Shown here: positions 6,001-7,769 of the stretch, in pieces
Position numbering within the stretch: the first letter of the stretch is position 1
How the letters are laid out: the number at the start of each line of letters is the position of its first letter
Position numbers: made by a program
Assembly (NCBI GenBank): GCA_964579265.1
Contig: CAZOFO010000022.1
Location: forward strand, 1 to 7,769
Length of the DNA stretch: 7,769 bases
Direction of reading: 5' to 3'
Source of the DNA: Candidatus Micrarchaeota archaeon
Lineage (GTDB): Archaea > B1Sed10-29

Positions 6001-7769
6001 AAAGACCAAGAAAAGATCAAAGACAAAAACAAAAAAGAAATGAAAGAAAAACTGGAAGAAATCAAAGAAGAATTAGAAGAAATAGGAGAAGTTAATCTCA
6101 AAGCCATAGAACAGTACAAAGAGGAAAAAGAAGAACTCGAGGAAATAAAAGAAAGAAAACAAGAACTGGAAGAAGAAAAAGAATCCATAGAAAAAATGAT
6201 AGATGAACTAGAACAAAAGAAAGAAGATACATTCATGGAAACATTCAACGCAATAAACAACGAATTCTCCGAAAAATACAGAAGCTTCTACCCAGAAAAA
6301 GGAGCAGAAGCAAAACTTGAACTAGAAGATCAAGAAGAACCACTGGACTCAGGCCTACTAATAGAAGCAAAACCAGCGGGAAAAGAACTGAAAAACATAG
6401 ATGCACTCAGCGGAGGAGAAAAAACCCTAACTGCACTATCATTCATATTCGCAATACAGTCACACAACCCATCACCATTCTACATACTGGACGAAATAGA
6501 CGCCACACTAGACGACGAAAACAGCGAAAGAGTGGCAAAGATGGTCAAAGAATCCAGCGAAATACTACAATACATAGTAGTAACACACAACCCACCCATA
6601 ACAAGAGCAAGCGACCAAGTAGTAGGAGTACACATGGACGAAGAACAAAACTCAAGCCTAATAGAAGTAAATCTAAAAGACTACTCCCAATACACAGAAG
6701 AATGAGAGAGGAAGAATAACAGCAAGGTGGAAATAATACATATAAAACTCAATCAAGTCCTTTCTCTACATCTTTTCTAACTATCCTACGAGATTCTTCA
6801 TTATCAAGTAACCCAATAGACTCTAATCTACCTAGAATCCACCCCAACCATCTCGCTGCTTTCTTAGAATCATCAAATTCACTTAACTCATCCAACATCC
6901 AGAGACAGTACGAAGGGACATCATCAATATCTTTCTCAGGAGAAGAATCCGGATACTCCTCTTTTATTATCTCTTTTAATTTATCCCTGGAATGCGGGTA
7001 TAGAACCATTTTCCATTCCTCTCTTTCGAAAGCTAAATGAATGAAAAAGAGCGGTGGGCTATAGCCTCCCTTCTGTACTACGGTGACATTCAACTGCGCA
7101 GGGATTCACACCCCTTGCACCAGGGGAAGGCACGTTTCAACTATGAAAACCCGGTCGTATACAGTCATCCCTTGAAGGGTTTTCAGTAGTTACGTTTCTG
7201 CTCCTTCCCTATCCCTTTCGGGATACCCACCTTCCAGCGGGAAAATCTCGGCAGATAAATTGCCGAGTGGTGGGGAGAGCTTCCTCAGGAGTTTTAATTT
7301 TGAGCCCAAAAAAGTCTCAAAACCCCGAGAGCCACCAGCCCACTACTCTCTTTAAAACAATAGTTGATGGACTACTATAAAAAAACTTGTAAAAAAATTA
7401 GAACAACGGTTAATGGAGGCGTAAAATATAAGGAAAGATGAGTAAAGACGCCATGCATGTTCTAGGAAACTGAAAGTCCCTTTTCCAGGCGATTAGTACA
7501 GGTGGGCTAAACACCTCGCCGAAGCTCGGTGCGTACACCCCCTGCCTATCAAACCCGTCTTCTACGGGAGCCTTCTTATCCATCCCATCTCAGTTGCCCG
7601 AGATGGTTAGGAATTAGTTACCTCTTTTTGAGAGAAGCTTCGGGCTTAGATGCCTTCAGCCCTTATCTTCGTGAGGCGTAGCTACCCGGCTATGCCCTAT
7701 CGGACAACCGGTAAACCAGTGGCCTCGACCCATCGTTCCTCTCGTACTGAATGGACCATCCTCTCAGGT

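Follow-up and report, generated by a model that had tools for sequence, protein, structure and literature searches.

Why the RNase P RNA gene of an archaeon should lie directly behind a 23S rRNA gene, and whether the ribozyme is then transcribed with the ribosomal RNAs or from a promoter of its own, are questions raised by contig C22 of the Candidatus Micrarchaeota archaeon genome studied here (G000), of which 7,769 nt, referred to below as the window, were analysed. To our knowledge, transcription and 5′-end formation of archaeal RNase P RNA have been mapped in few species. The minus strand carries the 3′-terminal 297 nt of a 23S rRNA gene truncated by the contig end (7473-7769; Rfam RF02540, LSU_rRNA_archaea, 238.8 bits, model positions 2729-2987), followed after a 125-nt spacer by an archaeal RNase P RNA gene (7050-7347; Rfam RF00373, RNaseP_arch, 103.6 bits with a cut-off of 84, model positions 1-288). 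This is the arrangement described in an earlier note on this DNA, and Rfam reproduces it. The RNase P RNA is a complete covariance-model match above the gathering score, ordinary except for a long P3 (30 nt unmatched relative to the model), and pairing of the two ends allows the P1 helix to be extended to ~7351-7353 and 7044-7046. An Rpp29 gene (PF01868), encoding an RNase P protein subunit, is present in the genome. On the 3′-side of the ribozyme there is an 87-aa ORF without a Pfam match (6749-7012, minus strand), with a similar gene start at this place in G002, and then a convergent gene for an SMC chromosome-segregation ATPase (3130-6705, plus strand; Pfam SMC_N and SMC_hinge) that sets the far limit of any transcript.

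No tRNA was found in the window, and the only 5S match in the G000 genome is at C1:68087-68201, in agreement with the earlier note, which placed 5S elsewhere. BLAST with the operon of a relative recovered the 5′-end of 16S on a different contig, at its very end (C9:1-285), the search for the 16S family having given no match. As 23S is cut at a contig end and the 16S 5′-end is on C9, the rRNA operon is split by the assembly, which comprises 761 kb in 41 contigs. One of these, C41 (1737 nt), has a GC content of 66%, compared with ~36% for the remaining contigs, and is probably misbinned. Within the 23S fragment, a 37-nt insertion relative to the Rfam model (7579-7612, minus strand) folds as a hairpin (-19.4 kcal/mol) at what we take to be the position of helix 98, and this stretch is 25-45 nt longer in 11 23S genes of the phylum than in an Altiarchaeales one. 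The accessible text of bioRxiv 10.64898/2026.03.23.713588 describes H98 as absent in DPANN and the 23S of Thermococcus as opened in H98. Elsewhere in the window, 775-2478 (minus strand) encodes an acidic surface protein of 567 aa that has repeated domains and is anchored in the membrane at its C terminus, with two InlB-B-like repeats (PF18998).

RNase P RNA is detected in 24 of the 31 genomes of the phylum, the same count as obtained previously. Linkage was counted with a 314-nt 23S 3′-end query, as a whole-gene LSU search overlooked truncated 23S genes, including that of G000. Of the 24 genomes, 20 have an assembled 23S 3′-end and are testable; in 11 of these 20, RNase P RNA is encoded on the strand of 23S and no more than 742 nt beyond it, with spacers of 28 (G002), 30 (G004), 31-33 (G017), 40 (G010), 61 (G005), 81 (G020), 122 (G011), 125 (G000), 191 (G027), 587 (G022) and 742 nt (G018). 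All 11 linked loci listed in the earlier note, and their spacer lengths, are thus recovered, G017 reading 33 nt or 31 nt depending on the analysis; the 13 of 24 loci that it counted as having no 23S upstream include four in which the 23S 3′-end is not assembled, so that 20 is the fair denominator. The same order is present within 12 kb in 15 of the 20, the distance being 3.2 kb in G015, 9.9 kb in G019, 11.5 kb in G006 and 11.8 kb in G009, and in all four the interval contains protein genes, some of them oppositely oriented. G016 resembles G015 across a contig break, the two genes are 59 kb apart in G025, and they are on different contigs in G008, G021 and G026. Adjacency within 1 kb is expected by chance in a 1-Mb genome with a frequency of ~0.0005, related genomes not being independent. 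The linkage is real, far above chance and broader than the earlier note had observed.

Where the two genes are further apart, one arrangement looks like insertion into an older 23S-RNase P RNA adjacency: G018 and G019 have in common a 194-aa gene before RNase P RNA, and G019 has ~9 kb of additional DNA up to 23S. The G019 insert (L028:2790-12693) contains tandem related surface-type genes, that of G009 (L029:6493-18316) many short, mobile-element-like ORFs, and insertions may favour the position that follows the 23S trailer. The 23S gene of G009 also has a group I intron (L029:5220-5479), and longer 23S or 16S genes in G011, G016, G018 and G022 suggest further insertions.

In the 13 regions in which both genes are assembled, 16S precedes 23S, most with a tRNA(Ala) or tRNA-like sequence between them, and no 5S was found near 23S or RNase P RNA in any of these 13 regions. 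A conserved order 16S-tRNA(Ala)-23S-RNase P RNA is therefore supported. In five 16S-23S spacers (L025, L030, L033, L035 and L032) the tRNA(Ala) is split by T-arm insertions, two in G018, and was overlooked by ARAGORN; behind it are C/D-box-like words that flank a hairpin. Five genomes, G000, G002, G004, G010 and G017, were searched for genes of RNA-processing proteins. An EndA domain is encoded in all five, RtcB in four and Rpp29 in four, with all three in G000, and a PIN_5 (HARP-type) gene is present in every one. In two of the five the displaced 5S adjoins the PIN_5 gene, in tandem, 67 nt upstream, in G010 (C11:17227-17986) and divergently in G004 (C13:6125-6916). PIN_5 corresponds to the HARP cluster, and HARPs are apparently not the housekeeping RNase P in archaea, according to the accessible text of PMC10941002.

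Outside the phylum, 60 archaea were sampled across the domain, with 5S positions taken from profile searches; 56 have RNase P RNA, and in 46 both genes are assembled. In 19 of these 46, RNase P RNA is downstream of 23S on the same strand within 8 kb, in nine at no more than 1 kb and in ten more at up to 8 kb, and 11 complete or near-complete genomes are clearly unlinked. Spacers of 142 nt in G242, 144 nt in G267 and, from the group surveys that follow, 696 nt in G380 come close to the 143 and 695 nt that the earlier note gave for two genomes outside the phylum. Individual groups were surveyed through the best-scoring loci, up to 30 per group, with 1.5-kb flanks. In the phylum of G031, labelled Altiarchaeota, RNase P RNA is found in 49 of 61 genomes, and among the best-scoring 30 loci 18 have 23S upstream, 12 with short spacers. 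Linked loci make up 17 of the best 30 in the phylum of G257, 8 of the best 30 in that of G235, 3 of the best 12 in that of G267 and 2 of the best 27 in that of G215; none was found among the best 30 of 112 loci in the phylum of G033. In the class of G237, which appears to be Methanococci-like from the order 23S-5S-RNase P RNA and the short RNA (230-270 nt), 5S is directly upstream of RNase P RNA in all of the best 30 loci and 23S in 26. Apart from the phylum itself, the Altiarchaeota and one further locus, L052, no spacer shorter than ~99 nt was found in the loci sampled, and many of the longer spacers have a TATA-like word. In a tree of 23S sequences from these loci, the phylum adjoins G235/G258, and then the Altiarchaeota. 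Because linkage is absent from 11 of the genomes sampled across the domain and from the 30 best-scoring loci of the G033 phylum, the order can be called ancestral by inference only.

Several of these loci have features of their own. The 5S scores of G226 (C1:337637-337831), G249 and G270 are very low (28-35 bits); the 5S of G226 is in two adjacent pieces, and one opposite-strand gene separates 23S from RNase P RNA in this genome. G223 has two 23S ends that differ from each other, one followed by an RNase P RNA after 99 nt and the other after 7.6 kb (C34:2708-3398 and C23:701-8994); the short contig may be contamination. RNase P RNA is 1.5 kb from the 23S end, convergent on the opposite strand, in G254 (C46:3651-5886).

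A sequence pattern that combined the end of 23S with the 5′ motifs of RNase P RNA, and that spanned spacers of ~23-53 nt and a short P3, was run over 185,579 genomes. It returned five matches, all of them to real RNase P RNAs, in G017, G010, two genomes labelled Altiarchaeota and one labelled Woesearchaeota (L052), the last with a run of N just upstream of the 23S remnant. With its narrow spacer range, and with the known tight loci of G002 and G004 overlooked, this result is not a census. Among metagenome contigs the same pattern gave 13 matches, six of them real, five from one Altiarchaeales type and one G010-like, and seven false. In the seven false contigs (L278, L279, L281, L282, L286, L287 and L288) a hairpin, in most cases with a loop of 7 nt, connects the 3′-end of 23S to the 5′-end of a 23S; these junctions would fit circular pre-23S in RNA-derived assemblies, or alternatively circularly permuted genes.

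In most of 13 operons that were folded, the DNA flanking 23S on both sides pairs into a bulge-helix-bulge (BHB) stem, in which a 4-bp helix lies between two bulges of 3 nt each. The BHB is seen directly in G017, G005, G020, G027 and others, takes a relaxed form in the Altiarchaeota, and is not cleanly formed in the stems of G009, G011, G006 and G026. The 5′-arm is unassembled in G000, G002, G004 and G010. On the minus strand of G000 the spacer begins with the 3′-arm and its half of the BHB (7447-7472), the strand of the central helix being at 7466-7463 and a 3-nt bulge at 7462-7460, and when this arm (7480-7447) is paired with the 5′-arm of G005, a member of the same family, the predicted structure is helix-bulge-4 bp-bulge-helix (-44.9 kcal/mol). 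A stretch nearly identical to the G000 arm constitutes the entire spacer in G002, of the same genus, and in G004, of the same family. In the nine loci with both arms, the stem ends 1-15 nt before RNase P RNA, 1 nt in G017 and 2-15 nt in eight Altiarchaeota, and the gap between stem and P1 is 1-3 nt in G017 and G056. The outer stem of the Altiarchaeota retains 11-13 of 13 pairs in six of seven loci, with several pair types per column, and so with compensatory changes; the seventh, G055, is out of register in that comparison and pairs in a separate fold. From the BHB bulge to RNase P RNA the distance in seven Altiarchaeota is 26-40 nt.

Termination of archaeal transcription at oligo-U is established, and two T7 runs are present, together with a TATA-box candidate, in the ~100 nt between the stem arm and RNase P RNA of G000, in a spacer that is AT-rich. 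The first run (7391-7397, minus strand) is a candidate terminator of the rRNA transcript, and the second (7385-7379) overlaps the TATA candidate (7383-7376), the two occupying 7376-7385 on the same strand. The candidate scores 7.0 bits and is at -36 from the Rfam start and at ~-32 from the extended P1. A position ~30 nt upstream is usual for an archaeal TATA box, and as P1 can extend to ~7351-7353, the G000 word is at about this distance, as are those of the training set described below. After shuffling, the G000 spacer reaches 7.0 bits in 2.2% (-40..-28) to 6.3% (-60..-22) of 5000 sequences. The earlier note had allowed that RNase P RNA may have its own promoter here, given T-runs and a TATA-like box, and this is the likelier case.

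The matrix used to score TATA boxes was derived from a training set of 30 unlinked loci of the G033 phylum, and a threshold of at least 5 bits was applied in a window of -60 to -22. The boxes cluster at -28 to -42, most at -30 to -35. The threshold is reached in 27 of the 30 training loci, in 12 of 24 unlinked held-out loci, and in 8 of 25 unlinked loci of the G215 phylum, fragments L274 and L275 being excluded; since real promoters are overlooked this often, a low score alone is no proof of absence. Among linked loci, 8 of the 14 with spacers longer than 50 nt reach it, and none of the 15 tight loci, with spacers of 50 nt or less, does (four from the phylum and 11 Altiarchaeota; L054, with 13 nt of upstream DNA, is excluded). 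In G005 a 9.9-bit box is found at -30, in G002 a weak TATA-like word at -27 (0.5 bits). A scan for sigma-70 promoters and hairpin terminators gave results at chance level, with models unsuited to archaea. A weak promoter within the BHB word of the Altiarchaeota was also considered and rejected, as its distance to RNase P RNA varies. With a matrix of limited sensitivity, the stronger argument at the tight loci is the spacer filled by the stem. The earlier note had argued that spacers of 28-40 nt leave little space for a separate promoter, and the 15 tight loci, with G002 and G004 in which the spacer is the stem arm, bear this out. It had also proposed a single 23S-RNase P RNA unit conserved throughout the phylum, which is not supported, given the intervening genes and larger inserts in several genomes and the TATA boxes in 8 of the 14 longer linked spacers.

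We consider the most probable explanation, at roughly 60%, to be an old archaeal gene order, 16S-tRNA(Ala)-23S-(5S)-RNase P RNA, that has been patchily kept and now exists in two states, with RNase P RNA directly after 23S in the DPANN groups because 5S sits elsewhere in these genomes. Transcription, cleavage and trimming are in both states deduced from what is observed, namely gene order, stem pairing with compensatory changes, the presence or absence of TATA-like sequence, and the EndA, RtcB and Rpp29 genes. In the first state, to which G000, G005 and most loci with longer spacers would belong, the rRNA transcript would pass the arm of the 23S processing stem and probably stop at the T runs, and a TATA promoter ~30 nt upstream would start RNase P RNA separately; some transcripts might read through. 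In the second, that of the tight loci, RNase P RNA would be part of the pre-rRNA. The splicing endonuclease EndA would cut the BHB and free pre-23S, leaving a downstream piece that consists of a 25-40-nt leader and RNase P RNA and that might be trimmed in the short, often U-rich linker, as has been proposed for Methanococcus maripaludis. Co-transcription in the 15 tight loci (four from the phylum, 11 Altiarchaeota) is strongly implied by the lack of any TATA box of at least 5 bits and by a stem that nearly fills the spacer where both arms are assembled. For G000, with a stem arm, two T7 runs and a well-placed TATA box in its spacer, a separate promoter is likelier. The idea that RNase P RNA travels as a passenger of the operon thus holds, as probable co-transcription, for short spacers, and probably does not extend to the genome for which it was put forward; a link between the amount of RNase P RNA and ribosome synthesis would likewise follow at the tight loci only. 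As both states occur in one genus (G000 and G002), the stretch carrying the promoter seems to be readily gained or lost.

That RNase P RNA instead travels at the 3′-end of the rRNA operon as an obligatory passenger, in G000 and throughout the phylum, and is retained there so that its level tracks ribosome synthesis, seems to us unlikely. Same-strand adjacency in over half of the testable genomes is what such a passenger would give, G002 and G004, close relatives of G000, have no room for a promoter, and oligo-T terminators can leak. There is also a precedent in the rrnC operon of M. maripaludis (PMC10515664, in its accessible text). However, the terminator and promoter candidates of G000 and the strong TATA box of G005 do not fit an obligatory passenger, nor do the protein genes that intervene in G006, G009, G015 and G019, and G026 is clearly unlinked. 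The converse, that the order is plain synteny and no RNase P RNA gene is without a promoter of its own, which at the tight loci would be either hidden in the stem arm or 23S 3′-end or devoid of a TATA box, we regard as still more improbable, although the limited sensitivity of the matrix and the weak word of G002 would be compatible with it, and all RNase P genes start with a purine after a short linker. The conserved A-rich word of the Altiarchaeota that might be taken for a promoter is, however, the BHB itself, at a distance from RNase P RNA that varies from 26 to 40 nt, unlike TATA boxes, which cluster at -28 to -42 with most at -30 to -35. Moreover, the rRNA transcript must cross the 3′-arm if the stem is to form, and in G017 and G056 this arm ends so close to P1 that a terminator has no room.

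The truncation of 23S by the contig end in G000, and the run of N upstream of the 23S remnant in L052, could be signs that contig ends in rRNA have fused unrelated pieces, an explanation to which we give almost no credence. The spacer of G000 opens with the stem arm of its own family. For the group as a whole such an artefact is refuted by recurrence of the order on long contigs in which 16S and 23S are complete, in the single-contig genomes G257 and G260, and on five different metagenome contigs from a single type of Altiarchaeales.

The two-state reading has a bolder extension, which we advance tentatively and regard as rather doubtful. The ancestral archaeal rRNA operon would have ended in RNase P RNA, which at the DPANN loci without a promoter would arise as the 3′ exon when pre-rRNA is spliced. 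EndA would excise 23S in the manner of a 3-kb intron, and RtcB would join the trailer to the upstream spacer, in which there are C/D-box-like words; the resulting spliced precursor would carry RNase P RNA, which might keep the joined spacer as a leader. Were this so, release of the ribozyme would depend on ribosome biogenesis, while the ribozyme would itself cut tRNA(Ala) from the same transcript. Taken alone, G000 is a modest case, two neighbouring RNA genes with probably separate promoters. If the two-state reading is correct, a layout reported for one methanogen would be a widespread and possibly ancestral archaeal gene order, of which two DPANN phyla hold a stripped-down form, with the ribozyme starting almost at the foot of the 23S stem. 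The loci would then also provide exact, testable junctions at which rRNA is processed in uncultured archaea, indicate where diverged RNase P RNA genes might be sought, and offer natural comparisons between close relatives that have an internal promoter and those that lack one, such as G000 and G002.

Stable non-ribosomal RNAs are found at archaeal rRNA operons elsewhere. In Methanothermobacter and Methanothermus the gene for SRP (7S) RNA precedes the rRNA operon, a similar case that differs in the RNA concerned and in its position on the 5′-side. In the operons of the phylum that were scanned, SRP RNA was not detected as a neighbour. The closest known system is in M. maripaludis, in which, as documented at the RNA level in the accessible text of PMC10515664, rrnC (16S-tRNA(Ala2)-23S-5S-rnpB) yields one polycistronic transcript that is processed, EndA cutting the BHB of pre-23S to release a downstream piece, and sites 3 and 6 nt after 5S, with an A/U-rich motif, likely separating 5S from RNase P RNA. 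The same text cites the joining of the 16S flanks by RtcB in Sulfolobus. As rrnC is published, RNase P RNA as a passenger of an rRNA operon is already known; the passenger idea is thus not new, and the statement that the linkage is unreported was, in the broad sense, wrong. What does appear to be new is the 5S-less, stem-abutting form and the breadth of the order, for which no description was found in the literature searched, chiefly other than older or subscription papers and supplements. In their accessible parts, PMC10941002 and bioRxiv 10.64898/2026.03.23.713588 report neither the 5S-less DPANN form nor the spread of the order, and the linkage is not reported in the accessible part of a paper on CPR bacteria (PMC8172020).

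As in rrnC, insofar as the accessible text of PMC10515664 describes it, the RNase P RNA gene of G000 is downstream of 23S on the same strand. The M. maripaludis operon is known from RNA, G000 and its relatives from sequence. Unlike rrnC, there is no 5S between 23S and RNase P RNA, either in G000 or in the operon regions of the phylum, and at the tight loci 1-15 nt separate the 23S processing stem from the start of RNase P RNA. G000 departs from the passenger type represented by rrnC in the terminator and promoter candidates of its spacer, which set it apart from the 15 tight relatives without a TATA box of at least 5 bits. With archaeal pre-23S BHB processing, as set out in the accessible parts of PMC10515664 and bioRxiv 10.64898/2026.03.23.713588, these loci share a leader-trailer stem and genes for EndA and RtcB, but the trailer that would be left after the cut carries a ribozyme, whereas elsewhere it is a discarded spacer or carries 5S.
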